Counted from the stretch's first letter, positions 9,778 through 40,371 are shown. The stretch: 64,000 nt of DNA from Oscillospiraceae bacterium (GCA_902791235.1 CADAUV010000003.1:9016-73015), one strand, 5' to 3'. Notes: generated by a model not told the origin, from the letters alone. Made by a program: numbers and translations.

Positions 9778-11568
9778 TTAAATGTTAAAAATGGTTTCAA
9801 GTTCTTCTTCTGTGAGAAGTTCAAGATTGTTCTCGGCTTCGTCTGTATCAGGTAAATCATCAACAGCTGTACCAAGAAAAGAAATAGTGGCGACATCTTT
9901 GTCAACATCGCCGTGAATATATGGTGCTGCACCGCCATCCTCCGTTAAGGCAAAGTTCGGATGGTTTCGTATATTGTATTTAAGGTCAAGAATTGGTCGT
10001 TCGCCACGAATGAATAAAATGCAGTATTTGTTATCAAGCATACGAACCTCATCAGGCGTCATTAACTCTCTGCCCGTTATCTGATAGTTGGTTGAGTAAT
10101 TTCCGTTTCTGCCCATACTCTTGCCGTAGGTATTTGTATCAATCGTTTCCTTTCCGAGCAGTTCCGAAACATACTTGTGTGTTGATTGTTCATTACCGCC
10201 GAGATAAAGAAATTCATCACAGTTACCGACAATGCTCTCCCATTGCTTTTCAAAGAGTGCTTTAAGCTGTGCCATATTCTGAATAATGATTGATACGGAC
10301 ACACCTCTTGAACGCATTACGGACAGTATCTTATCAAAGTCATCGGGTAGCGATATGTTTGCAAACTCGTCCATACAGAAATGAACGGGCATAGGCAACG
10401 CACCCTTGTAGATACTGTCAGCAGCATAAAAAAGCTGTTGGAAGAGCTGGGTATATAGGATTGAAATAAGGAAATTAAAACTTGTATCGTTATCGGGAAT
10501 GACGGCGAATAATGCCACTTTTCTCTCACCGAGCGTTTGTAAGTCAAGCTCGTCATAAGAGGTCATAGAAGCGAGACTGTCAAGATTAAACTTTTCAAGC
10601 CTTGCCGCTAATGTTACCTGAATTGATTTAAGCGTTTTTGCCGAGCCTGAATGGTAAGAACGATAGTATTTAAGAGCAATATGATTTGGGTTGTCAGATT
10701 CCAAATCATCAAAGAGCATATCAAGTGGGCTATCAAAATTGCCCGCTTCTTCATCAATGTCAGCAGCTCTTAACATTTCCATTACCATAGCGAAGTTCTG
10801 TTCATCTTCAGGTGCTTCATAGACAAGGTAGAATATCAAGGCAAGTAAAAGCATTTGAGCAGCCGTATCCCAGAACGGGTCGTTACTCTGTGAGCCTTTT
10901 GGCGTGGTGCTTTTGAAAAGGTTTGTTACAAGCCTTTGCACATCGTTGTCGCTCATCAAATACTTAAAGGGGTTATAGCAATGGCTACGCTCCATATTGA
11001 TTAAATCAACAACGATAACCTCATAGCCGTTAGCCTTTAACATAGCACCTGTGTCCCTGACAATTTCGCCTTTTGGGTCTGTTACCACAAAGGAACAGTT
11101 GCACTGCATAATATTCGGTTTTGCAAAGAAGAAGGTTTTACCTGCACCGGAGCCACCTGCAACAAGTGTGTTGAGGTTTCTCATATGAGCCTTTGCATTA
11201 AGTCCCATACATACCTCATTTGTGAGTATCTTATTATTGGACTTTGGCTTTTGCTCATATTTCTTCCTTATGGTGTTTTTGTTACCCCACTTTGCCGAGC
11301 CGTGTTCCTCGCCCTTACGGTAGTTTCTCATACTTGCAAGAGCAACGCCGATTGATAAAGCGTATATCATCAAAACAATGAGGACAGTTTTTAGGCTGTC
11401 CTCACATAATGATATATTCAGCGGATTTTCCATCGCTTCTGTTAAAGCAGAAAGCATTTCCGGAAGTCCGCCGCTTGTATGCGGCGCTATTACCAAGCCG
11501 AGCCATATGACTGGCAGAATACCGATAAGAGCAAAGATATAAACGGATTTGCGATTGTTATCTCGCAT
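9778..11568 (-). CDS. VirD4/TraG type IV coupling protein
   Basis: Two N-terminal TMs, HGSAKWG, GGSGAGKT, TDPKGE, MDEFAN, RELMTPDE. Confidence 0.93.
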   Translation of the reverse strand: MRDNNRKSVYIFALIGILPVIWLGLVIAPHTSGGLPEMLSALTEAMENPLNISLCEDSLKTVLIVLMIYALSIGVALASMRNYRKGEEHGSAKWGNKNTIRKKYEQKPKSNNKILTNEVCMGLNAKAHMRNLNTLVAGGSGAGKTFFFAKPNIMQCNCSFVVTDPKGEIVRDTGAMLKANGYEVIVVDLINMERSHCYNPFKYLMSDNDVQRLVTNLFKSTTPKGSQSNDPFWDTAAQMLLLALIFYLVYEAPEDEQNFAMVMEMLRAADIDEEAGNFDSPLDMLFDDLESDNPNHIALKYYRSYHSGSAKTLKSIQVTLAARLEKFNLDSLASMTSYDELDLQTLGERKVALFAVIPDNDTSFNFLISILYTQLFQQLFYAADSIYKGALPMPVHFCMDEFANISLPDDFDKILSVMRSRGVSVSIIIQNMAQLKALFEKQWESIVGNCDEFLYLGGNEQSTHKYVSELLGKETIDTNTYGKSMGRNGNYSTNYQITGRELMTPDEVRMLDNKYCILFIRGERPILDLKYNIRNHPNFALTEDGGAAPYIHGDVDKDVATISFLGTAVDDLPDTDEAENNLELLTEEELETIFNI

Positions 11569-11758
11569 CGTTATCCCTTTCGATGACCTTAAACTTTTTT
11601 ACGGGTGCTTTACCAACCTTTACAATGAGTTTGTTTACTGCTTCAATGCAGTCCTCCATATCCTCGCCGTTTTTCAGTTCATCTTTGAGGCTGTCAAGAC
11701 CACGCAGAAGCAGGCTGTGTTCCTCACCGTCAAGGGCAAGATGATAAAGCCTTACCAT
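11558..11758 (-). CDS. Small hypothetical ICE protein
   Basis: GAGGTG RBS; fills the gap between genes and overlaps the virD4 start. Confidence 0.6.
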   Translation of the reverse strand: MVRLYHLALDGEEHSLLLRGLDSLKDELKNGEDMEDCIEAVNKLIVKVGKAPVKKFKVIERDNDAR

Positions 11759-11770
11759 AATGACACCTCA

Positions 11771-12676
11771 TTATCTTTCCATGTCGTCATTGCTTCTGGC
11801 TTCTCTGTCCTTGTTAAGTTCAGAATAAACCTTTGTGCCGATTTCATTAACGCAATCTCTTGACATCGTGAGCTTTTCACGGATACCGTTGTTATCAAGG
11901 TCAGCCCACTCCTTAGGCGGCGAAGCAACATCGATGCCCTTCGTGTCGATACCGTACTTTCTGCAAAGCATATATGCCGCACACTTTGCAGGATAGAGCG
12001 CTTCGCTTCTGCTGTAAGAATCGCTGTTGTAGGCAATCTCTGCAAGAGAGAGTTCCTGTGCAACTGCCTGAAAGAGTTTTGTTGCGTCGCCGACATTCTC
12101 TCTGACAAGAAGCATATTACTTTCAGGCTCATAGTAAGCCGCAGCATTTTCAATCGGAATCTTGTCGGAGATTTCATAGTCAATCTGACTTGTTTCAAGC
12201 ATAGCCGAAACAATTTTTGCCGGATCGTGATTAACAGTAGGAGTATTCCTTCTGCGTGCATTGGTCTGTGAAATATCAAAGACTCTTTTCACATTGTAGG
12301 AAATACCGACAGAACCGTTTTCACGGGAGTATTCCTTCGGTTCAAGAATCATAAGGCTCTTTGAACCACGCTTAACGGTAACGCCCGTTTCGCTCCAATC
12401 CTTATAGTCCTTAAGCTGTGTCGCTTCGGGAAGCTGCTGCATAATGAGAACCGTGTTTGCAACGGAGTATCTGTCAAGTCTTGCCTGAGTATCAAGATAC
12501 TGCATAAAGCTTTCCGGACTCTGAAGAATGTTGTTGAAGCCTTCGTCAATCATTGAGTAGGCGGCATTACGCTCTTCTTCCTTTTTGAGAGCGTATTCCT
12601 CCTTTGTCATCTGCTGACGGGGTTCATTTGATTTGTTTCTGTTGAAGCCGTTACGCTTCGGATGGTAGTTAGCCAT
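11771..12676 (-). CDS. ArdC-N/LtrC-like ssDNA-binding antirestriction-type protein
   Basis: YSVANTVLIMQQ.PEAT...W...G..VKRG...VFDISQT motif; degenerate protease-like segment AVAQELS. Confidence 0.7.
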   Translation of the reverse strand: MANYHPKRNGFNRNKSNEPRQQMTKEEYALKKEEERNAAYSMIDEGFNNILQSPESFMQYLDTQARLDRYSVANTVLIMQQLPEATQLKDYKDWSETGVTVKRGSKSLMILEPKEYSRENGSVGISYNVKRVFDISQTNARRRNTPTVNHDPAKIVSAMLETSQIDYEISDKIPIENAAAYYEPESNMLLVRENVGDATKLFQAVAQELSLAEIAYNSDSYSRSEALYPAKCAAYMLCRKYGIDTKGIDVASPPKEWADLDNNGIREKLTMSRDCVNEIGTKVYSELNKDREARSNDDMER

Positions 12677-12681
12677 AATTT

Positions 12682-13482
12682 TTACCTCTCTTTTTTATCT
12701 TTAATTTTGATGTCGGGTTGCTTATGCTCGATAACCTTCGGCGTGGTTTTCTTCGGCTCATCAACCTCAATGTCAAGCGCTTTCTGCTGTTCCTTCTGCT
12801 TCTTAATCTGTACTCTGTAATGGTCAATCTTTTCCCGTACAGATTCTTTGGCAGCACCCTTATCAGAGAGCGTTCTTGGTTTCTGCGTATTCAACGAATT
12901 TTGCTCGGACAGAGGGCTTTTTTCTGTCTTTGCTAAGGAAGGGTTTTCAGTTTCGTTTTCCTCCCTCTGAATAGGCTTGCCGAGAGCCTGTTCGGTAATC
13001 AAGTCTGCCTTGCTCTTTTCAGGTTTATCTTTTTCCTTTGCTTTACGCTGGGAAAGCTCTTTCTCCGACTCATTGACAATAGTAGCCTTTTCATCATCGG
13101 TAAGATTAAGACCGAAGCGTTCAATAATTCTCTGAATTTTAGAACTGTCCTCGGCTCTTGCGATAATATCAACCTCGGCTGTTTTATCGGTAGAGGTTCT
13201 GTCACGAAGGACTGTATAAAGGACACCGTATTTCTTTGCGTTACGGGTAAACTTTTCCAAGTCCTTTTGTGAGATGGAGAAAACTTTGAGTTCTTTACCT
13301 GATTTGAGCATTTTGGTAAGTCTTGTTTTACCTTTTGTTTTTGAGCTTTTCGGATTTTTAAGGGCGGCAATTAAAAGTCCTGCAATATCACGGGCCGCTT
13401 CGCCCGTAATCTTTGCAGCAACCTCAACGCCCTCAAGCGATAATCTCACAACCTGTTCGGCTGCATCACTTGAGCTGCTCAT
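12682..13482 (-). CDS. PcfB family (DUF3801) protein
   Basis: DAAEQVVRLSLEG...AKKYGVLY motif; ATG 13482 after AAGGAGG. Confidence 0.8.
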   Translation of the reverse strand: MSSSSDAAEQVVRLSLEGVEVAAKITGEAARDIAGLLIAALKNPKSSKTKGKTRLTKMLKSGKELKVFSISQKDLEKFTRNAKKYGVLYTVLRDRTSTDKTAEVDIIARAEDSSKIQRIIERFGLNLTDDEKATIVNESEKELSQRKAKEKDKPEKSKADLITEQALGKPIQREENETENPSLAKTEKSPLSEQNSLNTQKPRTLSDKGAAKESVREKIDHYRVQIKKQKEQQKALDIEVDEPKKTTPKVIEHKQPDIKIKDKKER

Positions 13483-14839
13483 AAGACTTTTCCTCCTTTT
13501 GTTTTGGTGCTCTTTCATCATCTGTTCGGATTTGCTCAACTCGCTTTTCTAACTCTTGGGAACGTGCAGCAATATCCTCACAGAGTGAAATCTCCTTGCG
13601 GAGTTCGCCGAGCCTTTGTGAAATATTAGAAATCTTATCCTTAATCTCTGAGCGTTCAACCTCGCTTATGCCTTTATGCCTTTCATTATTTCTCAGGTGT
13701 TTTCGTTCAGTAGTTAAGGCTTCCATTTCCTTTTCACAAGACTCTTTATACGAAACAAGCTGCTCGGTAGTTTCAATGTGATGCTTACCGAGCAGCCTTG
13801 CTTCTTGTGAATATTTTTCAACCTTCATTAAGTCCTTTCGCAAGAGATAATGAAGTTTATGCGGTGTTTGCCTTTCTTCCGGCTTGTCAAAGTATCCGAG
13901 CCGATAGCAGTAGTAAAGATAAAGGTTGTACAGACTGCCTTTTACTCTGCGAATATCATACTGCGGATGATACGGTGGCGGTGTGTATCCCGTAAAGCCT
14001 TGCAGAAAGGTTCTGTTTCGTGCGTTCTCTTGTATACGCTCTTTAATTCTTCTGTTTGTGTATTCATCGCCAAGGCGGTATAAACGGATTGGTCTGCCGT
14101 CCTCGTTGGGAGTAACTGTCCAATACTTTCGGTTTGGACTCAAGTTGTATCTATATTCCATTGAGCGTAAATGCTGTTGAAATTCGCCAAGCGTTCTGCT
14201 ATATGCAATAGCCTCGTCAACAGCTGCACGGGCGAGATTATATCTTGTCGGCACACCTGCTTTGTCTTTCATTGTTAAATAGCGAGAATCAATATGCGTT
14301 TCAGGATTTTCAATAACTGACACGCCATATTCCTTACAAACATCATCGGCAATGTGGCGAAAACATTTCCAAGACACTTCGTTTCCGTGCATACGTTTTC
14401 CGTCAACAAACGAAACGGAATTTATGACAAAGTGATTATGAAGGCAGTGGGAATTCAGATGTGTTGTAACCACAACCTGAAATCTATCTCCCCAGACTCT
14501 CTCGGCAAATTTAATTCCTATTGCGTGGCAGAGGTCGGGAGTGATTTCATCGGGTTTGAAACTCATATATCCGTGATACGCTTGAATACCGTCTGTCTTG
14601 TTATACAATTCCTTAACCTTTATGAATTGCTCACGGGCAAGAGTTGCATCACAGTTAATGCCGGATACATAAAATTCCTGTTCGGTTTTTTCTTCATCCT
14701 TTGCATAGGTGAGGACATCTTTTAATGCTTGCAATTCATCAACAGAGTATTTATCCTTTTCAGTCTTGTCAGGATTTTTTGCATAATCAAGCACTCGTTT
14801 CAAATTATCTTCAACCTTCCACAGTCTTGTTACCGCCAT
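13466..14839 (-). CDS. Relaxase (MOBP-type relaxase/mobilisation nuclease)
   Basis: YAKNPDKT, AYHGYMSF, HLNSHCLHNHFVINSV histidine triad. Confidence 0.9.
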   Translation of the reverse strand: MAVTRLWKVEDNLKRVLDYAKNPDKTEKDKYSVDELQALKDVLTYAKDEEKTEQEFYVSGINCDATLAREQFIKVKELYNKTDGIQAYHGYMSFKPDEITPDLCHAIGIKFAERVWGDRFQVVVTTHLNSHCLHNHFVINSVSFVDGKRMHGNEVSWKCFRHIADDVCKEYGVSVIENPETHIDSRYLTMKDKAGVPTRYNLARAAVDEAIAYSRTLGEFQQHLRSMEYRYNLSPNRKYWTVTPNEDGRPIRLYRLGDEYTNRRIKERIQENARNRTFLQGFTGYTPPPYHPQYDIRRVKGSLYNLYLYYCYRLGYFDKPEERQTPHKLHYLLRKDLMKVEKYSQEARLLGKHHIETTEQLVSYKESCEKEMEALTTERKHLRNNERHKGISEVERSEIKDKISNISQRLGELRKEISLCEDIAARSQELEKRVEQIRTDDERAPKQKEEKSYEQLK

Positions 14840-14842: not shown

Positions 14843-15172
14843 TTACTCCTCCTTGTCAGGCGCAATATATTTTTCAAATAAAGCGTTCTGCGTTTTCTGC
14901 AAATCCTCTCGGATTTTATTTAGCATAGGAGCGTCAATAAAGTTAAGCGAGTTTGCTTTTACTGCGAGCTGGTTAATGTTGTTACAAGCAGATGACATTT
15001 GCCTCATAAGGATATAAAATTCCGCATCGGGTTTTTCTTTCGGGATGTGTCCTTCAACGAGAGAGCTGATATATCCCGACAATGTCAGACCACATTCTGC
15101 GGCTTTCTTTTTCCATTCCTTTTTCTTTTCGTGAGTAAGGCGAATGTGTATCTCATCTGTTTTGTTTTTCAT
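14843..15172 (-). CDS. mobC: MobC relaxosome accessory protein
   Basis: Ribbon-helix-helix N-terminus, NNINQLA motif, directly upstream of the relaxase. Confidence 0.85.
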   Translation of the reverse strand: MKNKTDEIHIRLTHEKKKEWKKKAAECGLTLSGYISSLVEGHIPKEKPDAEFYILMRQMSSACNNINQLAVKANSLNFIDAPMLNKIREDLQKTQNALFEKYIAPDKEE

Positions 15173-15830: not shown

Positions 15831-16814
15831 TTATCTGGAAATCTCCTGATTTGTACTCCTGATTTTTTGTTTTGATGGTATTGAATAGTCCCTCAGATAA
15901 AGTAAAAAAGCGTTGACATCTTTTCCGATAGGAGGGGGATTGTCAATCACTTTTATATCTTTGGGTATTAAGGTTTGGATGGCTTTGGTAGCAAGTCTGC
16001 CCGTTCTGTCATTGTCAAAATGAAGGTAGATTGTATCCGTATGAGGATGCTCCTTCAGGTATTTAACAAGGGTAATTGGTAGCTTGCTTTGGGTAATATC
16101 TTTCTTTGGTTGGTACACACCGGAAAGAGAAATAAGGTTGTAATCTTTCCAATTACTACCCTTAATTTTGAGTAAGGTTGCATAGGATAGCAGGTCTATC
16201 GCACACTCAAAGAGGTGAATTTTATTACTCTGTTCACTACCTATTAAGCGGAAGGAATACTCCTTATTGCTACCCGAGCAGTCACCCATTATGCGTTCTG
16301 AGTTGCTCGCTCTGAACCCTGCGTATCGAGGTATATGATACTCATCATACCCAACGAAAACAGCGTTATGATAGGGTAGGCTTTCAAAGATAAGTCCTTT
16401 ATCAAAGCAGTAGTCAACCACCTCTGAGTCTATTCCTCTGTTATACATAAGGTAGTGAGGAACAGTATCAGGGTAGTCCGTAAGGTCGGGTAAAAGAAGT
16501 TTTTTAGGTTTCTTTTTCGGTTCGGTCTTTACCCAAACGGGTGTGCGCTCGGCAACACTACCGAGTATTTTTTCTACCGCTTCGGGTAAGGATAACTCCC
16601 TCACTTTGACTAAATAATCAAGTGCTGACCTCCCGCCGATGCCCGCCGACCAGCGATACCACATACCGTTTGAAATCTTAACGCTGTCGTGTTCACGGGT
16701 GGAGTAAACACCCGTTGATACCCTGACAAGATTATCAGGCTCATAGTTTTGAAGGTAGGTTAGAAGGTCAAGGTGCTTCGCTTCGTTTAGCTTTTCAGGG
16801 GATATATAGCCCAT
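15831..16814 (-). CDS. DUF3991/toprim domain primase-like protein
   Basis: EHDSVKI...W.RWS..IGG, YL...RGI, LFECAIDLLSY, FDNDRTG toprim motifs. Confidence 0.85.
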   Translation of the reverse strand: MGYISPEKLNEAKHLDLLTYLQNYEPDNLVRVSTGVYSTREHDSVKISNGMWYRWSAGIGGRSALDYLVKVRELSLPEAVEKILGSVAERTPVWVKTEPKKKPKKLLLPDLTDYPDTVPHYLMYNRGIDSEVVDYCFDKGLIFESLPYHNAVFVGYDEYHIPRYAGFRASNSERIMGDCSGSNKEYSFRLIGSEQSNKIHLFECAIDLLSYATLLKIKGSNWKDYNLISLSGVYQPKKDITQSKLPITLVKYLKEHPHTDTIYLHFDNDRTGRLATKAIQTLIPKDIKVIDNPPPIGKDVNAFLLYLRDYSIPSKQKIRSTNQEISR

Positions 16815-17158
16815 TATCTGCTATCCCTTTCTTCCTGTTTCTTGAAGTAATCAATTTGATTTTCAATCGCCAGGTTCACGCTATCACGAAGCGTATCAAC
16901 TACCGAGCCATCAAAATCAAGCCACTCATTATACAGATAATCAAGGGCGTTTTTGGTTTTGAGTATTGCCACACTCTGCTTGTCATTGAAAGCACCCTCG
17001 CACTCAAACATACAAAGGATTTCCTGCTTATAGGTTATCTCATAAGCCGCCTCAACAATTTCTGTGGGCGATTTTGTTTTGATGTCAGCAATATATTCAT
17101 CAAATTCACGCTGAACTTTTTCGTATGCTCTGTCCTCTAACGATTTCCTTTTTGCCAT
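16814..17158 (-). CDS. DUF3848-like protein
   Basis: YEKV..EFD.Y...EIVEAAYEI..K...ALDYLYNEW. Confidence 0.7.
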   Translation of the reverse strand: MAKRKSLEDRAYEKVQREFDEYIADIKTKSPTEIVEAAYEITYKQEILCMFECEGAFNDKQSVAILKTKNALDYLYNEWLDFDGSVVDTLRDSVNLAIENQIDYFKKQEERDSR

Positions 17159-17167: not shown

Positions 17168-17515
17168 CTACCTTTCAGGTTCTGAATTTTGTTTTGCAAT
17201 TCGATTTGCTTCACGCTCGGCTATTTCGCTGATGGCATAATGAAAGTCCTCAGTACGCAGCTCATCATCCTTTTGCCACTCCTTGTAAAGAAAATCAAGC
17301 GGCTTCTTTTTGTTGCAAACTGACCGCAAGGACTTACCATCGAGGGGAAAGAAATATTCAAATTCAAGCATCATGTCAGACTTTACAGATAATTCTTTTA
17401 CGCTGCTTTTCAGCAACTCTCTATCGCCATTAAGCAGCTTATCAAGAAAGGCGTTATAGTCCTTTTGCAGTTTGGAAAACAGTTTGGCTTTCAGTTGTTC
17501 TTCTGTTAATTTCAT
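17168..17515 (-). CDS. DUF3848-like protein (second, diverged copy)
   Basis: LFSKL..DY..F...PLDFLYKEW; ATG 17515 after AGGAGGT. Confidence 0.6.
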   Translation of the reverse strand: MKLTEEQLKAKLFSKLQKDYNAFLDKLLNGDRELLKSSVKELSVKSDMMLEFEYFFPLDGKSLRSVCNKKKPLDFLYKEWQKDDELRTEDFHYAISEIAEREANRIAKQNSEPER

Positions 17516-19013: not shown

Positions 19014-22000
19014 TTATCGTTCATCTCTGTCCTTGTCATCTCTGACGGGTGTGCTTTCATCCTGTTCGGGCTCCTCATCAACCATTTCGTTTTCACGCTT
19101 GTCAACATTAAGAAGGGCGTTAAGTTCACGGAGCCTTGCTTCCTTTTGCTTTAACTCCTCATCCTTTGCAAAGGGCTTTTCAAGCTGTTCCTTTGCGTTT
19201 GCAAGCTGCGTTTCGGTGGTATCACGAAGTGCTTTTGTCCTTGTGAGCATATCCTCCAAGCCGTCAATCACATTATCAATACGGGTAATGTTACCGATTG
19301 CGTCAGTACCGAGGATACCTTCGTGAGAAATTGTACCCTTAATCGTTACCCTGTGCTGATGTGAGAACGGCTCATAATGCACCGAGAGTTTGAAACCTCT
19401 GTACTCGCCAAGAGGATAAATCTGTGTGTCGGGAAGCGTTTTACAAACATCAATGATTGCCTGACCTGCGTCTGCTTTTTCGGAATAAGGAACACCGTTT
19501 ACTACCATACCGACAAAGGTATCGCCGATAGATTTCGGGTTTTTCTTGGCAGTAACAATATCCTTTTCAAGCCCTGCAATACGCTCGTCATATTCGGCAA
19601 TCTTCTGCGGAAATTCCTTTAACACTTTGTCCTCAAGGGAGTAACGCTCCGAAAGATAATTTGATTTAAGCAGGCGTAATTTCTGCACCTGAATATCCAA
19701 ATCCATCTTCTCTTTGATATACGGATTACCCGTAGCAAGCATTTTGATTTCAGCATAAGACAGAGCCGTTTCGTCAATATCCTCTGCGGAACGCACCGGA
19801 GATTTAGAACTCATTATCTGACTTGCGAATTTTTGCTTACCCTCAACAAGCTGATAAAGGTATGCGTCAAAGGTCTGTTCGGTTACATAGCGGAAGATTT
19901 CAACCTCTTCGTTGCTGTTGCCCTGACGGATAATTCTGCCTGAACGCTGTTCCAAATCGGAAGGACGCCAAGGACAATCAAGGTCGTGCAGAGCAATTAA
20001 TCTGTCCTGAACATTGGTACCTGCACCCATCTTTTGCGTTGAGCCGAGCAGCACTCGGATTTCACCTTTACGCACTTTCTTAAACATTTCCGCTTTCTGC
20101 ACCTCCGTTTTAGCATCGTGTATAAAGGCAATCTCGCTTTCGGGAATACCTTTTGCAATCAGCTTATCTCGGATGTCAGTATAGACGGAAAAGGTGTCAG
20201 ACTTCGGCGTTGAGAGGTCGCAGAATACTAACTGCGCTGATTTCTTGTCTGCGTTATCCTGCCATATCTGGAAGATGTTATCGGTACAAGCATTAACCTT
20301 GCTGCCGTCAAAGTCGGGAAGCAGGGGGTCAATCATACGCTGGTCAAGTGCAAGCTTTCTGCCGTCATTGGTGATAACGAGCATATTGTCATCCCACGAT
20401 TTAACAACGCCGCTTCGCACCTTTTCTGCTCTTTCGGATAGTGATTCAACCATCTTTTGCTGTATCTCTGACGGCTTAACAGCGACATTATGGTAGTTTG
20501 CTTTCGGAACCGTAATACTGTCAGTAAGCATATCGGCTGTTTTAATATCCGCAACCTCTTTGAACATTGACATCAGTTCGGGGAGATTGTAGAAACGAGC
20601 AAAGCGGGTTTTCGCTCTGTATCCCGTTCCTTCGGGCGTTAATTCAACTGCTGTTACGGTTTCGCCAAAGGTGGATGCCCACGCATCAAAGTGCTGCAAA
20701 TCGTGACGGCGCAGGGTTTCATACTGCAAGTATCTCTGTATGGTATATAACTCAACCATAGAGTTTGAGATGGGAGTTCCCGTTGCAAACACGGTGCCTT
20801 TGCCGCCCGTGATTTCGTCAAGATAGCGGCACTTCATAAACAGGTCGCTTGACTTTTGTGCTTCTGTTTGAGCAATACCTCCGACATTTCTCATCTTGGT
20901 ATAAAGGAAAAGGTTTTTGTAGTAATGGCTCTCGTCAATGAAAAGACGGTCAACGCCGAGTTCCTCAAAGGTAACAACGTCATCCTTGCGGGTCTGGTCG
21001 TTGAGCTTTTTGAGCCTTGCTTCAAGACTCTTTTGTGTCTTTTTCATCTGCTTGACGGTAAAGTTTTCAGCATTGTTCCGCTTTGCTTCTTCAATACCTC
21101 TGACAATATCGTTAATCTGTTCCTCAATGAGATATATCTGCCGTCCAACGCTAACAGGTATCTTTTCAAACTGCGAATGACCGATGATAACTGCATCGTA
21201 ATCGCCCGTAGCAATCTTACCGCAGAAGGTCTTTCTGTTCTTTGTTTCAAAGTCCTTTTTGGTAGCGACAAGGATATTAGCAGACGGATACAGCGTTAAA
21301 TATTCCGCCGCCCATTGCTCTGTTAAATGATTCGGGACAACAAATAAAGACTTGGTACATAAGCCAAGTCTTTTGCTCTCCTGTGCTGCAGCGACCATTT
21401 CAAAGGTTTTGCCTGCACCGACTGCGTGTGCAAGGAGTGTATTGCCGCCGTAAAGTATATGAGCAACAGCGTTTTTCTGATGCGGTCTTAAAGAGATTTC
21501 GGGATTCATACCGCTAAAGGTAATATGGCTTCCGTCATATTCACGAGGTCGGATAGAATTGAATTTGTCATTGTAAAGACGGGTGAGTTCCGTTCGCCTG
21601 TCAGGGTCGTTCCATATCCAATCCTTAAACGCCTGCTTAATGAGTTCCTGCTTTGCCTGTGCGATAGCCGTTTCCTTTTTGTTAAGGACCGGCGTTCGCT
21701 TTCCGTTATCGTCAATCTCATAATCAAAGATACGCACATCCTTCAGGTTGAGGGTTTGTTCAATGATTTTGTAAGCATTGATACGGGTAGTACCGTAGGT
21801 GCTGTTTGCTTTAACATTACTCTTATCGGAGGACTTACCCGTAATGTTCCACTCACCTGTATAGTGCGAATAGTTCACTTTGATTTTGTAGGAGTAATAA
21901 TACGGCGGGTCAAGCAGTTCAAAGATGAATTGCTGAATATATTTTGTCGGCAGCCAAGTAGCGCCAAGTCTGACATCAATCTCGCTTGCCGTTAAGTCCT

Positions 22001-25000
22001 TCGGCTGCACCTTGCGTAGTGCTTCTGCATTAACCTCAAAGGCAGGATTAACCTTTGCCATATTTTCAGCCACACGCAGTTTAGCACGGACATCACCTGA
22101 CAGATATTCGTCAGCCATAAGATATTTCTTTTCGGCTGGTCTGTCCTCGGAATACATCGGGTTAAGAAAGATAATGCCTGTTAAGTCATCTGCGATTTTT
22201 TCCTCTGTTTTACCCGTAAGCTGCATCATATATTCTACGTCAAGTTCTGCCTTTTCGCCCATTGAAACTGCAACTGCTTCAATAGAGGTGTCAACGCTTG
22301 TAACAGGAATATGGGGTTTGATAGTTCGCTTTGTGAACATATCCGCCTTGCGTTCGAGGTTGCCCTCATCATCAAGCACCTCTAATGCAGTAAGCAGATA
22401 GTAGGAGCCGTCATCGGCAAAAGCGCTCTTGTTAGCACGGGAATTGATAAGTCCGTACTTTGCTGTAAACCCGTCGTATAGCTCGTTTAAGTTCTGCTGT
22501 TCGGACTGTATTTCTTCTTCGGGATAGTCCTCGGTTTGCAGTTCTATGAGCCGTCTGACGCTCTGCCTGATATTGATTAAGCCTTTGATACGGTTTTCAG
22601 CAGTCGCCGACACCTTAACCTCTTTCATCATAGAGTTTTCACGATAAAAGATTGTGCCGTCAACAACGGTATATGAGAAATTGCGTACTGTCGGGTCAGC
22701 AGGTAAATACTGACGGTCATCCTCAATTTCTTCCTCGTCGATTTCATACTCTGTAATTTCACCCTTAATATTACGGATGGCAATATTGAGTTGCTCCTCA
22801 AGCGTTCTGTCCTCAAACGGCTCACAAGTCGGTTCGGGACCGAATCTGCCTGATTTCATTACCATATTACCCATAATCATTTCAGGGTGGTCAACAAAGT
22901 ATTTATTCATACGGATACCGTCTTCTGTATTATCAAGCATTAACCAGTCGGGTTCCTCGTTGACAATTCTATCTCTTTTCTGAAGGATAAGAATATCCGA
23001 GGTAACATCTGTTCCGGCATTACCCTTAAAGGTATCGTTAGGAAGTCTGATAGCGCCGAGCAGGTCTGCTCTCTGTGCGATATATCTTCGCACATTGGAG
23101 TTTTCCTTATCCATTGTACCCATTGAGGTAACAAGCAGCATTACGCCGCCCGTTCTTAACTTATCAAGGGACTTTGCGAAAAAGTAATCGTGAATAAGGA
23201 AATTGTTTTTATCGTACCGCTTATCCGCAACCTTAAAATCACCGAAGGGTACATTGCCGACAACTGCGTCAAAGAATGAGTCGGGCAAGATTGCTTCCTC
23301 AAACGGCGAAGCAAGCACCGATGATTTCTGATATAACTGCTGTGCAATCTGTGCAGAAATACTGTCAAGCTCAATACCGTACATCTTGCTGTCCTTCATT
23401 GAGTCGGGAAGCATACCGATAAAGTTACCGATACCGCACGAAGGCTCAAGGATATTGCCCTGCTTAAATCCCAAGTTTTGAAGTGCCTTATACATCGCTG
23501 CAATAACTGTTTGAGGGGTATAGAAGGCGGTTAAGGTGCTTTCCATTGCTGCGTCATATTCTTCGGGAGAAAGAGCAACAATGAGTTCCTTGTATTCATC
23601 TGCCCAAGCGGAATTGTTCGGGTCAAACGCCTCTGGTATTCCGCCCCAACCGACATATTGCGACAAGATTTCCTGTTCTTCAGGCGTTGCAAATCTGCCT
23701 TCAAACTCACACTCTTTCAGCACATTAATCGCTTCCATATTTCTGCGGAAGCGTTCTTTTTTGCCTACACTCTCAATATCCTTTTCGGCAAAGTTGTAAT
23801 TGTGCCTTGCTTCAAGTGGTATTTCAGGGTGAAGGTCAAAGGTACGCACCTTTGATTTCGGCTGCTGCGGTGGTGCAGGGAGTATTTCAACAACAGGTTC
23901 TTCCTTTTCGGGCAGTAACGGGAATATATCCTCAATACGCTCTCTGCGAAAGATAGGAAAGCCTGCGTTTTCTGCAAAGGTAACATCACGCATTGAAACA
24001 TAGTCGCCCTTAACTTCTTCAATGATAAAGTGCGAGCCGTCAATGACAATTTCATCGCCAATCATATCCGAATGGTCAGGCTCCGCCTTATCTTCAAGCG
24101 TAGCCGTATGCTCCGTTAAGTCGTGAATCAGACTTTGTATTTCTTCAACACGGCTATAATCGGGAGTGTCAAAGGTCTGCTGTGCTTCGTGTGCGTCAAT
24201 GCTTCGTTCTGCAGCATAGTCTGAAAGATAACTGATAACGCCCTCACAAAAGGTTTTATCGTTAAGATGTTCAGACATAATTCTGATAGCATCTTCGTCT
24301 GTTTCGCCGATTTCAAGGTTATCAGCATAATCATAAAAGTCGGTATCCTTTGCAAAGGCAACAAGGCGCCCTGCAAGAGTGACCTCTTTATCTAACCCAA
24401 GACTTTCAAGATACTCAACTGCTTCTGCTTTGGTATCAAAGGCATGAACAAGGTTGTCGCTGTCAATATAGAAATCGTGCGTTTCATTATCAACGATTGC
24501 CCACTTTGTCCCTTCGCCCGAACTTTCATAACCGTAGTGAACAGTATAACGTCCGTAGTCTGCATCGCTGAATGTTTTGTTAAGACTTTCAACTATTTTT
24601 TCTAAATCTTTTGTAAAAACAAGATCGTCAAAGGAAATGTTTTCTAACACTTCATTGATTAACTCCTCAAGGCTGTCATAAGTGGTAACCTCCACTCTGT
24701 TACCGTCAAGAAACTGAACGACCTCAAAATGAACCAAATCAACATTAACATCAATCGTGTGCTTTCCATCCTCAGTTTCGGTTGTAGCCAGATTAACATT
24801 TGATAAGTTGCTGAAATCAGCACTGTCATCATAACCGAATTCTTCGTGTCGGTACTCATTGATTAACTGCTTTGCTCTTTCAAGGGGAGGAAGCTCCTGC
24901 GTTCTGCCTGGAGCGACAACCCTGTTGACTTCCTGACTTTCGGCAATCGCAACCTTATGACCATTAGCGACAAGGCGGGAAATATATGAATCAACAGCGT

Positions 25001-28000: not shown

Positions 28001-28829
28001 CAGCACTCCTTTCAATATTTTTTTCGCTTTCAGTATATTCATCTTTGCTTTTTTCTGCAATTATGCGATTTTCTTTTTGCAGAGTAAGAACGGTTTTTCC
28101 TATTTCAGTCAGTCCCATTTCTGCAATATCGCTTGTTGCTTCGCCAAGAACGGAAAGTGCTTCGGGTGTGTTGAAATTAACAATGCCCTGAAAATCCTCT
28201 CTGTCAAAAAGATTTGAGGTTTCAACTCCCAAACGGGTAAGCATCATATATGCTACGCTGTTTTGAACAAGCACTCTCAATTCTTTCTCAATGGCGTCAT
28301 CACCTAAATCCTCAAGAAAGCTATCTGCTTTTGCATAATTGGTGAGTTCGGAGATATAGTCGGGAAGATTATCCATAGCCATATTCTCGGCAGCAGAAAA
28401 GACGGCATTAATAATATCTTCTTTCCTTTCAAGTTCGCCGAAGTTATCCTCTAAAACGGATATGACCTCTGCTTCATATTCCGCTTTGTATTCCCACATA
28501 GGAACAGGCTTTGAAAACTCTGTTTCGTGTGTATCGGAAATATCAAAGTAGTATTTAAGCCGCTGGTTTTCTCCTCTGACATTATCAAAAACGGCGATAC
28601 CCTTTGCACCGCCGTTTACCCATCTGCCAAAGCGGTTATTCCATTTGTCAAATTCAAGAACAGCGGTTGCATCCGGTCTTTGAGCAAAGATTAAAAGCTG
28701 CTCGTCAAACGGGAGTTTGAAGTTTCTGCAAGCCGAAAAAAGAAAGGACTGCCAGTTTTCAGGCGATTTTGTGATTTCTTTTAAGGTATCATCAAAGACG
28801 AATTTAATAAATTCATATTTGTTTGCCAT
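19014..28829 (-). CDS. Giant polyvalent DarB-like protein: ArdC-N-like, LPD25-like, MutS domain I, N6-adenine methyltransferase and SNF2 helicase
   Basis: ILEPSCGIGNF and VGNVPFG methylase motifs; HAVGAGKT, DESH, TGTP, QRSGRIIRQGN helicase motifs; RLGDFYE MutS-I motif; CEWSEH...GYAKTKF. Confidence 0.9.
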   Translation of the reverse strand: MANKYEFIKFVFDDTLKEITKSPENWQSFLFSACRNFKLPFDEQLLIFAQRPDATAVLEFDKWNNRFGRWVNGGAKGIAVFDNVRGENQRLKYYFDISDTHETEFSKPVPMWEYKAEYEAEVISVLEDNFGELERKEDIINAVFSAAENMAMDNLPDYISELTNYAKADSFLEDLGDDAIEKELRVLVQNSVAYMMLTRLGVETSNLFDREDFQGIVNFNTPEALSVLGEATSDIAEMGLTEIGKTVLTLQKENRIIAEKSKDEYTESEKNIERSADYDTANQLHDGRWSSDSEPASPTGQDDSFWSLRRSSQRISDEPPQAVLHEPETAMPARPTSERGSGQSRADGGTVDDNDGSSRGLDGETESGKSDDLGTGHEQPEAESSGDSHERSDLSEVSKELPPFTDEDKILFMLQNPNDDLAHRKEFLVQRWSELRNTDEKGRYISTVYGGLLKQFNVDGVEVGYHYEPEGLYLYEGTYKSRTKESLFSWNLVAELIDQLIKEGKYYQPEKKEPESAQIGFFDFIDNAVPAEQTVAEPEQVSFFADFGISQQIIDEALCIGANDRNSTLDIAMFFRRDRGTEYNAKFLKSHYGTNGAGFFFDGEQMSVWYDENGINIAKGNTAQKSSATHLTWKQAAKRIRELLDLGRFMPQYQLDKIDDYELSYVAERIVFFLRDMDKDSKERCFPSLYEALNGVYGYPDQVEIVKGALSNPDTFNDLDNDYIEFMDDRRRGTISGLPRYSFKYSPEYVYEIMQGMSLEKVPFKAQAGFNPDRQYFITNDEINKLLRRGSSVQYGKYRIYTYFVNHPDLQDRIKMLKDEYGTGGFGDGNDSENHDAKGISFSHGNSMEPYAKVFLKWNDIAKRIDTMIKANTYYYPEEIERIPDIEKDIIASEIVNFFELAPEEYAKPFSADTEPYNREKVVKAQLDNPQALDDIDRMMSDALTLMDKSNERDYKWHQEQYDNFVAFKNGEYHPYAVPEQKASLPRPTKFSQPTEKETPKETEPYIICEWSEHEGFEDGKRYTVPEFDRLMREADEEWIRKKAAEIERNGSFEKALENDDYAHQGYAKTKFTLYMPDGKSYTERQDIGDGDGGVIDFLRQYPSYNEVVAELDKLMYPDETELIAVNNLLAACKIDDMVVEFEGDTIVASDSDGNKWKGAELYQFLLNEALTFGADGKLVEGLSVDERIINSVLDYAKKYGVEPELVDDGISPIWKSYTQLKAQYPDVIIFSRLGDFYEVMGENAKVVAEELDLVLTGRTINTATGERTPMCGVPAHAVDSYISRLVANGHKVAIAESQEVNRVVAPGRTQELPPLERAKQLINEYRHEEFGYDDSADFSNLSNVNLATTETEDGKHTIDVNVDLVHFEVVQFLDGNRVEVTTYDSLEELINEVLENISFDDLVFTKDLEKIVESLNKTFSDADYGRYTVHYGYESSGEGTKWAIVDNETHDFYIDSDNLVHAFDTKAEAVEYLESLGLDKEVTLAGRLVAFAKDTDFYDYADNLEIGETDEDAIRIMSEHLNDKTFCEGVISYLSDYAAERSIDAHEAQQTFDTPDYSRVEEIQSLIHDLTEHTATLEDKAEPDHSDMIGDEIVIDGSHFIIEEVKGDYVSMRDVTFAENAGFPIFRRERIEDIFPLLPEKEEPVVEILPAPPQQPKSKVRTFDLHPEIPLEARHNYNFAEKDIESVGKKERFRRNMEAINVLKECEFEGRFATPEEQEILSQYVGWGGIPEAFDPNNSAWADEYKELIVALSPEEYDAAMESTLTAFYTPQTVIAAMYKALQNLGFKQGNILEPSCGIGNFIGMLPDSMKDSKMYGIELDSISAQIAQQLYQKSSVLASPFEEAILPDSFFDAVVGNVPFGDFKVADKRYDKNNFLIHDYFFAKSLDKLRTGGVMLLVTSMGTMDKENSNVRRYIAQRADLLGAIRLPNDTFKGNAGTDVTSDILILQKRDRIVNEEPDWLMLDNTEDGIRMNKYFVDHPEMIMGNMVMKSGRFGPEPTCEPFEDRTLEEQLNIAIRNIKGEITEYEIDEEEIEDDRQYLPADPTVRNFSYTVVDGTIFYRENSMMKEVKVSATAENRIKGLINIRQSVRRLIELQTEDYPEEEIQSEQQNLNELYDGFTAKYGLINSRANKSAFADDGSYYLLTALEVLDDEGNLERKADMFTKRTIKPHIPVTSVDTSIEAVAVSMGEKAELDVEYMMQLTGKTEEKIADDLTGIIFLNPMYSEDRPAEKKYLMADEYLSGDVRAKLRVAENMAKVNPAFEVNAEALRKVQPKDLTASEIDVRLGATWLPTKYIQQFIFELLDPPYYYSYKIKVNYSHYTGEWNITGKSSDKSNVKANSTYGTTRINAYKIIEQTLNLKDVRIFDYEIDDNGKRTPVLNKKETAIAQAKQELIKQAFKDWIWNDPDRRTELTRLYNDKFNSIRPREYDGSHITFSGMNPEISLRPHQKNAVAHILYGGNTLLAHAVGAGKTFEMVAAAQESKRLGLCTKSLFVVPNHLTEQWAAEYLTLYPSANILVATKKDFETKNRKTFCGKIATGDYDAVIIGHSQFEKIPVSVGRQIYLIEEQINDIVRGIEEAKRNNAENFTVKQMKKTQKSLEARLKKLNDQTRKDDVVTFEELGVDRLFIDESHYYKNLFLYTKMRNVGGIAQTEAQKSSDLFMKCRYLDEITGGKGTVFATGTPISNSMVELYTIQRYLQYETLRRHDLQHFDAWASTFGETVTAVELTPEGTGYRAKTRFARFYNLPELMSMFKEVADIKTADMLTDSITVPKANYHNVAVKPSEIQQKMVESLSERAEKVRSGVVKSWDDNMLVITNDGRKLALDQRMIDPLLPDFDGSKVNACTDNIFQIWQDNADKKSAQLVFCDLSTPKSDTFSVYTDIRDKLIAKGIPESEIAFIHDAKTEVQKAEMFKKVRKGEIRVLLGSTQKMGAGTNVQDRLIALHDLDCPWRPSDLEQRSGRIIRQGNSNEEVEIFRYVTEQTFDAYLYQLVEGKQKFASQIMSSKSPVRSAEDIDETALSYAEIKMLATGNPYIKEKMDLDIQVQKLRLLKSNYLSERYSLEDKVLKEFPQKIAEYDERIAGLEKDIVTAKKNPKSIGDTFVGMVVNGVPYSEKADAGQAIIDVCKTLPDTQIYPLGEYRGFKLSVHYEPFSHQHRVTIKGTISHEGILGTDAIGNITRIDNVIDGLEDMLTRTKALRDTTETQLANAKEQLEKPFAKDEELKQKEARLRELNALLNVDKRENEMVDEEPEQDESTPVRDDKDRDER
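27638..27997 (-). CDS. TnpV-family protein nested out of frame within the giant helicase gene
   Basis: Y..VGGVQIPNL...GRYA..R..FL..H...Y..L...AQEGLTEKLKAENPMTWVQGMNN...EIV..EVIY; RBS GAAAGGAG 8 nt before ATG 27997. Confidence 0.75.
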   Translation of the reverse strand: MTQPISYTTVGGVQIPNLLLPQDKTIRFGRYAEARREFLMNHHKPYYTSLKLQCQLDQHLKEAQDRAEQMEEQLMTTMAAQEGLTEKLKAENPMTWVQGMNNLKQRVQEIVMNEVIYQR

Positions 28830-28837: not shown

Positions 28838-29794
28838 CTACCTTTCGTAATCATCTCTGTTGCGATTGTTATGGCTTTTCCCTCCGTTAAAACTTCTTGG
28901 GTCAGCATCCTTGTCAGCCCAACCGAACATAGCTGCCATTGTCATAGCGCCGACCTGCTTATCGGTAACGCCAAGTTCCCTGTTGAGTTTAGCAACATAC
29001 TCACGGTTCCTTTCCTTATCAGGATATTTTGCCTGCTCAAAAGGTTCATAACCGTCTTTGCCTTTGGTAACGATGGCGTAAATATCGTGAGTGTCAACAT
29101 AGACATAGCATTTTTCGGGTAGTGAATCACGGTAAGGAATAACGGTTGCTCTGTTTCTTTCAATAAGCTCCGCAAACTGACAGATGTGATAGATGCTGCC
29201 ACCGATTTGTGTGTGGTATTCGTCAATATATCTGCACTCCTGCGTCTTGGTTTCGCCGTCGGAATACTTAATCATAATCTTATCGCCATCTTCAAGTTTG
29301 AACTTCAGTGAATAATCCGAGCGAATAAACTTAATATCCTTTGCCGCCTTTTTCATATGGCGGTCAAGCAAACGCTTGTCATAAGCAAAAACATAAAAAT
29401 CATAATCACCCTTTTGATGCGGCTCCATACGAATAAAATATGAGTATCTCTCAGTATCAAGACGAAAACCGTACTCTTCGCTGAAATTACCTTTCATTGC
29501 AGCATTGCGGTTTTGTAGGCAAAAGGCACTCATTGCCTTTCTGTCTGCAAAGGGATGAACTGCCTTGCTTTCGTTGCCGAACTCCTCCATAACTTCAGCT
29601 AAATCATTGCGAAAATCATCGGTCATTTCAGTATTGCTGTTACCGAACCAGACAGCGTTATAATCCACGCCGCTTTCACCGAAATCGCCGTGATAATATC
29701 CAAAGCAGCCCGTTTGACCTGCAATCTGCTGGCTCTGCTTGTACGCATAGAGTTGTTCTGCTCTTGAAAGAGGTTTTAATGTGTATTCTCTCAT
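28838..29794 (-). CDS. Conserved multi-domain ICE hypothetical protein
   Basis: 318 aa; QSQQIAGQTGC..Y.HGDFG, CRYIDEYH...HICQFAE, GVT..Q..AM...MFGW motifs; coupled to neighbours. Confidence 0.75.
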   Translation of the reverse strand: MREYTLKPLSRAEQLYAYKQSQQIAGQTGCFGYYHGDFGESGVDYNAVWFGNSNTEMTDDFRNDLAEVMEEFGNESKAVHPFADRKAMSAFCLQNRNAAMKGNFSEEYGFRLDTERYSYFIRMEPHQKGDYDFYVFAYDKRLLDRHMKKAAKDIKFIRSDYSLKFKLEDGDKIMIKYSDGETKTQECRYIDEYHTQIGGSIYHICQFAELIERNRATVIPYRDSLPEKCYVYVDTHDIYAIVTKGKDGYEPFEQAKYPDKERNREYVAKLNRELGVTDKQVGAMTMAAMFGWADKDADPRSFNGGKSHNNRNRDDYER

Positions 29795-30033: not shown

Positions 30034-30277
30034 TGCTTTTTTCCTCCTTATTCATTAAATATTCAAGCATAGGGATTTCTCTGTATGCTCTGTCAACAAT
30101 ATCCTTTTGAGCAGAGAAGCGGTCATCAAAAAAGCGTATCCAAGAGTAATTCTTTTCTTCGTTACGGCGAAAGCAGGTAGCATATTTGCTTTTACTGTAT
30201 TTGTTATAGCCGATAAAGAAAGTGATATTACCAATGGATAACTTTTGAATAACCTTGTATCCGAAAAAGCGCTTCAT
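30011..30277 (-). CDS. Small hypothetical protein, paralog of 30274..30564
   Basis: ATGA overlap with the upstream gene; shared GYxVI...YxT...W..F.DR..A..D...R pattern. Confidence 0.65.
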   Translation of the reverse strand: MKRFFGYKVIQKLSIGNITFFIGYNKYSKSKYATCFRRNEEKNYSWIRFFDDRFSAQKDIVDRAYREIPMLEYLMNKEEKSNANKTDG

Positions 30278-30564
30278 CTTTCATCACGCTCCGTCTGCTG
30301 TTTGTGAAAGCCGGTAATTCGATCAAAATAGCGAACCTTCTCCATACCACGCTTTGCCAAGTCACGCTCGGCAGCATATCTGTCCTTGAAATAATGTCCC
30401 CAATAAAAGTCCTTCTTTTCGGAATCACATTCCCAAGTTACATACGGGGTAGTGTACTTCTTGTCAACAAGGTCGGGATTTACGCCAAGAACAATCGTGG
30501 CATTACTGATATGGAGTTCCTGTTCAATAACATAACCTGCATTAACGATTTTATCGTCAGCCAT
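30274..30564 (-). CDS. Small ICE protein with YVTW...YWGHY motif
   Basis: ATG 30564 after GAGGAGG; NAGYVI...PYVTWEC...FYWGHYF. Confidence 0.7.
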   Translation of the reverse strand: MADDKIVNAGYVIEQELHISNATIVLGVNPDLVDKKYTTPYVTWECDSEKKDFYWGHYFKDRYAAERDLAKRGMEKVRYFDRITGFHKQQTERDER

Positions 30565-30565: not shown

Positions 30566-31150
30566 TTACCGTGCCTCCTCTCTGCTTCTGTCCGCAATCA
30601 TTTTCTTGACTTCGGCAAGACCTTCTTTTGCCCACTCGGGCATCTCGTCCTTTTTGATAACGCCGAGTAGGTCATAGCGTTCCCAACGGGTATGCTCTTT
30701 TGTTGCAAGGTTATAGCAGAAAACGGCATTGCCCATTGAATTGATTTTTGTACCGTTACCGCTTACAGCATAATAGAGCTGATTTCTCTCGTTCTGGTAC
30801 TCTCTTTTAAGGCTTTTAGGCGAAACGACCACAACCATTCCTGCAATGTTGTTGAAATCATTTACAGACATACACTGCTCGGCTGTAATAACCTTTTCGG
30901 TTTGCGGCGCTTCCTTTTCGAGTTCGGTAACTCTGTCTGAAATTCTGTTACTGAATTCCCTCATGATTTTGAGATAGCTTCTCTCATAAACGTCATTCTG
31001 CGGCAACTGTAACAGATTGGTATGCTGAATATCACAGCAAACATATCTCGGCTCTTTGTAATCACATTCGCCGACAATCATTTCTGTTTTGCCGAGTGTT
31101 ATGGAGTGAATCACCTCATAATCACCGAATTTTCTTTTTTCTGTATTCAT
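30566..31150 (-). CDS. Conserved ICE hypothetical protein
   Basis: RBS GGAGGT; GDYEVI N-domain plus L.REY....QLYY..SG.G...RWERYD.LG...PEWA domain. Confidence 0.75.
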   Translation of the reverse strand: MNTEKRKFGDYEVIHSITLGKTEMIVGECDYKEPRYVCCDIQHTNLLQLPQNDVYERSYLKIMREFSNRISDRVTELEKEAPQTEKVITAEQCMSVNDFNNIAGMVVVVSPKSLKREYQNERNQLYYAVSGNGTKINSMGNAVFCYNLATKEHTRWERYDLLGVIKKDEMPEWAKEGLAEVKKMIADRSREEAR

Positions 31151-34224: not shown

Positions 34225-34249
34225 ATAGCATTCCTTTCTTAATGAAATA

Positions 34250-34278: not shown

Positions 34279-34290
34279 TGATAGGTTTGT

Positions 34291-38683: not shown

Positions 38684-39283
38684 TTAGTATTTGAAATTTC
38701 CTGTCCACTTGCTGCAATAAGCACAAGACCAACATTCATAACCCGACGGGCATTTCTTGTAGTATTCTTCACGAGTAATCTGTCCGCTTTCCTCCAAGTC
38801 AGCCCAATATTTCATTTCCCTGTCAACATAGGCTTTTACATCATTTTTGGAATTAAACCATCTGCCCATATTTCCACAGGCTTGGCTGTGATTGCCATTG
38901 TTCGTGCAAGTTGCCGCTTTTGTCGTAGTCGGCTTTTTTGTGGTTGTTTCCTTTTTCGTTGTTGCCGCCTTCGTTGTGCTCGGCTTCGTTGTGGTTTGCT
39001 TTTGCGTAGTGGTGTTTTGTTTGGTAGTGGTTTGTTTTTGTGTTGTTGTTTGCTTTGATGTCGTTTGCTCTTTTTTCTCGGTTGTTGTTACGGTTATTTC
39101 GGGCTCGGTTGTCGTTTCTTCAACCGTTGCAGTTTCTGTTGTTAAAGGAACGGTTGTTTCGGTTGTAATTTCTGTTTTACCAGCCGAAGAAGGAAGATCC
39201 TGTTTTTTTACTATTGCACTCTTTCCGCAAGCTGTGAGCATAACGATTATTACCGTCAAAACAATTATTGCGATTCTTTTCAT
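38684..39283 (-). CDS. Lipoprotein with Thr-rich stalk and Cys-rich C-terminal domain
   Basis: Lipobox LTAC; KQTTT-type repeats; C...H..ACG...CPSGYECWSCAYC. Confidence 0.75.
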   Translation of the reverse strand: MKRIAIIVLTVIIVMLTACGKSAIVKKQDLPSSAGKTEITTETTVPLTTETATVEETTTEPEITVTTTEKKEQTTSKQTTTQKQTTTKQNTTTQKQTTTKPSTTKAATTKKETTTKKPTTTKAATCTNNGNHSQACGNMGRWFNSKNDVKAYVDREMKYWADLEESGQITREEYYKKCPSGYECWSCAYCSKWTGNFKY

Positions 39284-39492
39284 AATATCGCCTCCTTTGC
39301 CTACATCGTACTACCAAAAACCGATTTAGACAAAGATGCGAATCAGCCCATCAGAACCACCTCCTTTTCTTAATTTTGTAAGACCTTATGTGTGTAGTTG
39401 ATTACTAACACATACTTATCTTTCGGTTGGTATTGTTGGTTAATAAATGGGGTTAGATTGTAAGGAAGGGGTGTGTAAAATTTGTAGCCACA

Positions 39493-40371
39493 CTACCTTT
39501 CATCACGGTTTCTCTGCCTTTGCAAAAAACGATTGTAATATTCAAGCGCTTTGCAGACATATTCTTCCGTTCTTTCGGCGGGTAAGGTCTTGGGCAATAA
39601 TTTTCTGACTCTGTCCCCACGAAAAACAAGCTTTTCGTGCTGATTGCCTTTTTCTTCCGAGAGAATTTCACTGATAACATTTGTGTCAAGTTTGCCATCG
39701 TTAAACAGTTTTCGTAACTGAATCGTTTGAGCGTGTGACGGGAAGCACTCGTTTTCATCAATGAAATCAACAATATCTCTTTGTGCATCCTCGTCAAGAT
39801 AGGACATCTCAACCGCAGGTCGCATACCGATTTTCCCTTCATCAACAAATTCAAGCAGTTCAGGAACGAGATTCGTTAAACGGATATATCGTTTTATTTG
39901 GCTTACGCTATCATTAGATTGACTTGCCAATTCTTCATTTGAGCGACTTCCGATTAAATTCGGTCCCAGTGGGTCCGAATTTTTTAACGGTCTGCCAACC
40001 TTGTGTTTCATAGCTTCCAACTTGATTTGATACGCAAACGCTTTTTCGCTCGGTGGAATGTTCTTTCGCTGTTGTAAATTGGTATCCACCATAACGATAG
40101 CGGCAGTATCGTCATCATAATTACATACCATACATTTTATTGTAGGTATGTTTGCCATTTCGCTTGCTCGCTTACGGCGATGACCGGAAATCATTTCAAA
40201 TCTGCCGTTGTCCTTTGGTCTGACAAGCGCAGGAAGAAGCACACCGTTATTCGCAACGCTATCCGCCAGTTCCAACATCTCCTCATCGTCCTTAACCTTA
40301 AACGGATGATTAGGAAAGTCATCAATAAGGGTAAGGTCAATATCTTTTATTTCCATTGGCTCACTATTCAA
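39493..40371 (-). CDS. ParB/RepB/Spo0J family protein
   Basis: HPFKV...GVL.P.LVRP...EMISGHRR..A, NLQ.R...PSEKA.AY, HTH QIKRYIRL. Confidence 0.9.
   Translation of the reverse strand: MNSEPMEIKDIDLTLIDDFPNHPFKVKDDEEMLELADSVANNGVLLPALVRPKDNGRFEMISGHRRKRASEMANIPTIKCMVCNYDDDTAAIVMVDTNLQQRKNIPPSEKAFAYQIKLEAMKHKVGRPLKNSDPLGPNLIGSRSNEELASQSNDSVSQIKRYIRLTNLVPELLEFVDEGKIGMRPAVEMSYLDEDAQRDIVDFIDENECFPSHAQTIQLRKLFNDGKLDTNVISEILSEEKGNQHEKLVFRGDRVRKLLPKTLPAERTEEYVCKALEYYNRFLQRQRNRDER

Follow-up and report, generated by a model that had tools for sequence, protein, structure and literature searches.

A candidate C-terminal recognition tail on proteins encoded by a CD1115-type conjugative element of an Oscillospiraceae bacterium

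The element and its Arg-ended proteins

A 64,000-nucleotide stretch from an Oscillospiraceae bacterium (GCA_902791235.1, CADAUV010000003.1:9016-73015; hereafter the window, whose positions give all coordinates) carries an integrative and conjugative element (ICE) of 33 genes on the minus strand, with a gene range of 2836 to 41015. A VirD4 of the CD1115 family, a VirB4 of the CD1110 family, PrgI, PcfB and a MOB_P-type relaxase accompanied by MobC are all present, as in Tn1549/pCF10-like ICEs, and the machinery genes form a type IV secretion system (T4SS). Eleven proteins of the element end in Glu, Ala or Ser followed by a terminal Arg, here written (E/A/S)R-stop (Table 1), and this tail is discussed below as a probable tag for the VirD4-type coupling protein. 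The tRNA-Pro(CGG) gene is the likely integration site of the element; an attachment-site repeat was sought for it and not found, and an integrase-like gene, judged by eye from the sequence, lies on the same contig to the left of the window.

Table 1 Features of the element, the C-terminal ends of its proteins, and the fraction of each protein family ending in Arg among relatives
Feature	Position	Strand	C-terminal end	Arg-ended in relatives	Remarks
T4SS block: pilin, VirB6-like, PrgI, VirB4 (CD1110 family), sortase, NlpC/P60 hydrolase	2836..9763	-	all untagged
VirD4-like coupling protein (CD1115 family)	9778..11568	-	untagged		NF045973, 537 bits, cut-off 250
66-aa protein ahead of VirD4	11558..11758	-	ERDNDAR	14/18
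ArdC-N-like single-stranded DNA-binding protein	11771..12676	-	RSNDDMER	13/16	PF08401 at cut-off
PcfB/DUF3801 protein	12682..13482	-	KIKDKKER	10/18	PF12687
MOB_P-type relaxase	13466..14839	-	EQLK (no Arg)	16/24	PF03432
DUF3991-Toprim primase-like protein	15831..16814	-	RSTNQEISR	14/15	Pfam domains; uncoupled
DUF3848 protein	16814..17158	-	QEERDSR	10/10 (family)	Pfam domain
Second DUF3848 protein	17168..17515	-	KQNSEPER		Pfam domain
Polyvalent protein, 3,271 aa (LPD25, MutS-I, methylase, SNF2 helicase)	19014..28829	-	DDKDRDER	13/15	uncoupled; CGA codon
318-aa protein	28838..29794	-	NRNRDDYER	7/8	no Pfam family
96-aa protein	30274..30564	-	QQTERDER
194-aa protein of unassigned function	30566..31150	-	DRSREEAR	3/3	CGG codon
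Element-type ParB	39493..40371	-	RQRNRDER		uncoupled
tRNA-Pro(CGG)	41376..41452	-			aragorn; flanks element on right

All eleven tails listed by a first-pass annotation of this DNA were present in the sequence, on the minus strand, and its statement that the motif is missing from the T4SS genes, as well as from the adhesin, sortase and hydrolase genes, was confirmed in the window. It had further described the tails as lying on unrelated proteins. This applied to nearly all of them; the genes at 16814 and 17168 are paralogues, both encoding DUF3848 proteins, and the eleven genes therefore represent ten families.

Genes were called with our own script, by which starts are approximate and stops exact. 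The (E/A/S)R-stop motif ended 11 of the 33 ICE genes, as against 13 of the 1,534 genes elsewhere in the genome, and the enrichment over host proteins on which the earlier reading depended was thus observed (binomial p 3e-15, a value overstated, like the other p-values, because kin are not independent). A terminal Arg in any context was found in 12/33 ICE genes and 69/1,534 host genes, and a terminal Lys, found in 288 of these host genes, was far more frequent there than Arg. Since the untagged genes 29791, 30011, 31150, 17583 and 18271 are interleaved with tagged ones, a regional base bias does not account for the tail. The chromosomal ParB and ParA homologues of the host carried no tail. The twelfth Arg-ended ICE gene (15153-15575, ending QNR) was set aside; Arg is kept in only one of five members of its family.

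Among the tagged proteins, the 66-aa protein is the weakest member because its last codons overlap the VirD4 start. The PcfB tail doubles as the ribosome-binding site (RBS) of the next gene, and the 3' end of the relaxase gene overlaps the PcfB start. The 96-aa protein has a tandem paralogue (30011-30277) without the tail, only the upstream copy being tagged, and the same pattern was found in G253; the paralogues at 30011-30564 thus form a natural pair in which the tag could be tested. The 318-aa protein showed a weak likeness to large-polyvalent-protein domains, which is a lead only, and an atlas search with the 194-aa protein likewise gave leads only. As called, the window ParB lacks about 20 aa at its start by comparison with relatives, and it has no ParA gene ahead of it; a ParA-ParB pair occurs in many relatives.

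Conservation and coding of the tail

A VirD4 match was found in 67 of the 301 genomes of the family. The sample consisted of 29 regions around VirD4 matches on longer contigs and 14 relaxase loci, some of them overlapping, and the 1,570 proteins of these regions were grouped into families. A clean test was restricted to the ten families named by the first-pass annotation, with the window excluded and the retained tails less than 8/15 identical. In these dereplicated relatives, 92 of 112 members of the named families ended in Arg, as against 12 of 107 members of machinery families; for (E/A/S)R, the corresponding values were 73/112 and 1/107. Other element proteins (MobC, DUF3789, serine recombinase, HTH regulator, cytosine methylase, topoisomerase and two small families), which were selected as controls after the family grouping had been seen, were Arg-ended in 5/67 cases, MobC being tagged in 3/19. 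The earlier statement that the relaxase lacks the motif was right for the window copy; the relaxase family as a whole, however, is Arg-ended in most dereplicated relatives (Table 1), including 6/8 of the uncoupled ones. ParB homologues drawn from 50%-identity clusters ended in Arg in 62 of 81 colinear matches, 69 of the 150 matches (9 of the 69 Arg-ended) having been dropped as fused, truncated or non-colinear.

In the profile of the 143 Arg-ended tails, position -2 was occupied by Glu (49%), Ala (23%) or Ser (10%), Asp/Glu made up 31-37% at -3 and -4, and Lys/Arg made up 30-45% at -5 to -9; hydrophobic residues were scarce. ArdA, YodL/DUF3846, DUF4314, DUF3560, amidoligase, GGACT and MOB_V relaxase were further families found tagged in relatives, of which YodL/DUF3846 was omitted from the clean test because it had been found by the tail itself.

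A terminal Arg could arise at the DNA level as a by-product of translational coupling, through an RBS of, or an overlap with, the next gene. A Shine-Dalgarno (SD)-like word does lie within the last codons of 52 of the 143 tails, and dual coding can account for ParA (7/8 ends dual-coded), for many relaxase RR ends and for the 66-aa protein. ParA was not counted as evidence, its Arg being dual-coded with the start of ParB. When the named families were divided by distance to the next gene, however, Arg was kept in 34/45 uncoupled genes, in 28/30 genes at RBS range, in 15/18 with a stop/start overlap and in 15/19 that were dual-coded. The first-pass annotation had pointed to the window helicase, toprim and ParB genes as lacking a coupled neighbour, which they do, and had set the persistence of Arg under non-SD (CGN) codons beforehand as the deciding check. 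CGN codons ended 41 of the 92 Arg-ended relatives and 17 of the 34 uncoupled ones, and this check did not refute the earlier reading. Synonymous swaps of the terminal codon were also observed among close relatives (AGA/CGA in toprim, CGA/CGC in the helicase), and coupled genes in general are seldom Arg-ended (6/56 in the machinery, 33/635 in the host). Since Arg is kept in uncoupled genes, under CGN codons and through synonymous swaps, selection acts on the peptide. As judged from these sequences, the tail is real at the protein level, and coupling is largely refuted as its origin in the helicase, toprim, ParB and DUF3848 families; the Arg of ParA and of the 66-aa protein may still be explained by it.

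Proposed role of the tail and alternative explanations

The tail forms the very end of unrelated proteins that are encoded together with a T4SS, and its occurrence on relaxases was used to examine its relation to transfer. Since relaxases are established substrates of conjugation machines, as stated in parts of a 2025 review (PMC12857230), relaxases of two other families were sampled by Pfam domain alone. MOB_V relaxases were Arg-ended in 21/29 cases, with 4 more ending in SL/GL; 30 of the 44 matches had been fetched as loci, one was dropped for an internal stop, and a few of those counted are near-duplicates. The 120 closest MOB_V homologues, more than 80% identical, were not counted as independent. 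MOB_Q relaxases, with one open locus dropped, were Arg-ended in 11/18 cases, 4 more ended in MEL/LSM, and the other 3 were short and likely represent broken frames. Among the control serine recombinases (30 loci from several hundred matches, less two duplicates), 2/28 were Arg-ended, as was 1/5 of the control Rep_trans/MOB_T proteins, which use another machine class. A tie between the tail and conjugative transfer is independently supported by the relaxases of two other families.

Two side observations concern MOB_V proteins. In G218 (L021-L022) the helicase gene is interrupted by what looks to be a small inserted element, in which a MOB_V relaxase and a ParB are tagged and a serine recombinase is untagged; the 3' piece of the helicase retains its tail. 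A host gene (G000:C1:56956-57906) has a short match to a MOB_V protein, below the Pfam search threshold, and is Arg-ended.

The tail is absent from the machinery, the recombinase and the regulators, and it is kept across many element families and, the window copy excepted, on relaxases. From these patterns we consider it fairly probable that this flexible, charged tail is a tag recognised by the VirD4-type coupling protein, by which establishment and anti-restriction proteins would be exported with the DNA, and we infer that the VirD4-like protein at 9778..11568 is its reader. A search of solved structures with this protein returned only distant coupling proteins (Cag5, TrwB) and nothing bearing on the tail. 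In the proposed mechanism, the free C-terminal Arg, with the acidic pair and the Lys/Arg-rich linker just upstream, would be bound by the coupling protein or by a partner located where the channel begins, and the tail would commit the protein to the channel. The coupling protein would then feed the relaxase-DNA together with establishment proteins (ParB, primase-like, ArdC/ArdA anti-restriction and helicase-methylase proteins) into the recipient, where this cargo would protect and establish the incoming single-stranded DNA. Small mobilisable elements would borrow the machine by means of relaxases with the same tip.

A wider reading, which we advance tentatively and rate at somewhat below an even chance, is that Gram-positive-type machines of the CD1115 family read one short C-terminal code (basic linker, acidic pair, Arg/Leu tip) and inject a whole establishment/anti-defence kit, either with the DNA or before it, and that the unrelated relaxases found in parasitic mobilisable elements have converged on the code to hijack the machines.

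The tail might instead serve as a docking peptide by which proteins are brought together at the coupling complex of the donor (on VirD4, PcfB or another protein of the element), most of them staying behind. PcfB and the 66-aa protein, both tagged and beside VirD4, are in line with this, as is the size of the 3,271-aa protein, which would be a large cargo; ParA/ParB1 of F have also been proposed as donor couplers (parts of PMC8406263). MobC, a donor-side relaxosome helper, is however mostly untagged, and the tagged ArdA and ArdC-N proteins are expected, from general knowledge, to act on incoming DNA. We regard donor docking without export of most tagged proteins as unlikely; PcfB and the 66-aa protein may, instead of being cargo, act with VirD4 on the donor side.

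It is less likely still that the tail sets protein stability or expression, by giving proteins that have to act fast, or to last in many hosts, an end that escapes proteases or favours termination. Lys and Arg are enriched at bacterial C-termini and alter protein levels up to fourfold, according to parts of PMC7246954, and the terminal codons of the tails lean to AGA/CGA (91/143), host terminal Arg codons leaning to AGA. Against this, host proteins seldom end in Arg and far more commonly in Lys, other element proteins are rarely Arg-ended, and the tip is hydrophobic in other elements, a class that the same source ties to lower expression. An origin of the motif in translational coupling alone is very improbable in the light of the uncoupled genes and synonymous swaps described above.

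Several observations weigh against a tag read by the coupling protein, besides the non-independence of kin already noted. The relaxase of the window itself ends in Lys. PcfB is tagged in little more than half of its family and adjoins VirD4, and could on these grounds be a donor-side partner as readily as cargo. Dual coding with the next gene's start, which can force Arg, affects the Arg of ParA, the RR end in many relaxases and the Arg of the 66-aa protein. MOB_V and MOB_Q relaxases were sampled by domain only, whatever coupling protein their own elements have. Tails in the window are of mixed charge and not net-positive, that of the helicase reaching -6 over 20 residues. Tn1549-like regions mix Arg and Leu tips within one region, and the tip therefore does not cleanly track the VirD4 clade. 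Finally, the ArdC-labelled proteins of two plasmids, one of them interrupted by an insertion sequence, carried no such tail.

Known systems and distant elements

Substrates of the Agrobacterium VirB/VirD4 system carry a C-terminal Arg-rich transport signal (VirF and others; the last 48 aa of MobA), according to parts of PMC10025392, and the present tail resembles it as a short Arg-containing C-terminal sequence on unrelated proteins and a relaxase. It differs in that the fixed feature here is the very last residue, preceded by Glu, Ala or Ser, and in that the machine is of the Gram-positive, bacterium-to-bacterium type. The first-pass annotation had likened the tails to the Agrobacterium signal; as a positive-charge signal, the likeness found no clear support. 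The median net charge over the last 10 residues was 0 for window tails and, for family tails, +2 as against 0 for the machinery, and the spaced multi-Arg consensus of the Agrobacterium signal matched 0/11 window tails and 1/172 family tails.

The F system exports ParA, ParB, SSB, PsiA and PsiB (for pED208, ParA, ParB1/2, SSB and PsiA/B), as reported in parts of PMC8406263. Co-transfer in pED208 and the F conjutome thus involves the same cargo classes and depends on the coupling protein (parts of PMC8406263 and PMC11288057), but the F signals vary and may be terminal or internal, and no terminal motif is common to them in the parts of PMC11288057 consulted, whereas one motif is shared here. Polyvalent proteins of Tn1549-like elements have been proposed as co-transferred effectors that enter with the DNA (Iyer et al. 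2017, parts of PMC5512222). The window helicase-methylase and ArdC-N proteins belong to this class; the parts of PMC5512222 examined describe no export signal. In Enterococcus pCF10, which has the same CD1115/CD1110 machine family, PcfB, the relaxase and an ArdC-like protein share basic tails, but their tips are Leu/Phe (GRKL, KPKL, PTRF) and not Arg. A targeted literature search, with subscription journals mostly outside it, turned up no paper that describes the tag.

More distant elements have a version tipped by Arg or by Leu/Ile; the tip there can be hydrophobic (MEL, ESL, QSL), often alongside ER in one region. In a quick VirD4 tree with long branches, a 23-row clade containing the window was mostly Arg-tipped, and the match between tip and clade was loose. 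Agreement of the tip type with the VirD4 tree was borne out only in part, Arg and Leu being mixed in the Tn1549-like clade. Six plasmid regions were compared, and the relaxase and PcfB had the same tip class in 4/4 with both genes annotated or placed, the tip being Arg in three and hydrophobic in one (in which PcfB was assigned by position). The two proteins likewise share a tip class (Leu) in pCF10. In the S. suis plasmid region no relaxase was in view, and PcfB, a helicase and an SSB-annotated protein shared a hydrophobic tip; in the sixth region (L098, a more distant machine) no shared tail was seen.

Experimental evidence on substrate choice by Gram-positive conjugation machines is limited, according to parts of the 2025 review (PMC12857230). 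A motif of a few residues makes substrate selection directly testable by point mutants. A tag of this kind, if true, would name candidate co-transferred proteins among many families of unassigned function, could explain the borrowing of ICE machinery by mobilisable elements, and would point to a pocket in the coupling protein, the blocking of which might curb gene spread in gut bacteria. If the wider reading of a code were true, the cargo lists of thousands of gut ICEs would be predictable from the final few residues of proteins.

Further genes lie in or near the element. Two AT-rich tandem paralogues at 17583-18927 (-), both untagged and with a weak Abi_alpha match, are sited between the helicase and DUF3848 genes, and a surface-protein block at 31639-38599, amid tagged genes, encodes an LRR_5 protein and a SpaA/TQ adhesin of 1,409 aa. 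An AT-rich gene pair at 1077-2790 (+) encodes an HTH protein and a protein with a weak AbiEii nucleotidyltransferase match, below the cut-off, and resembles type IV toxin-antitoxin cargo.

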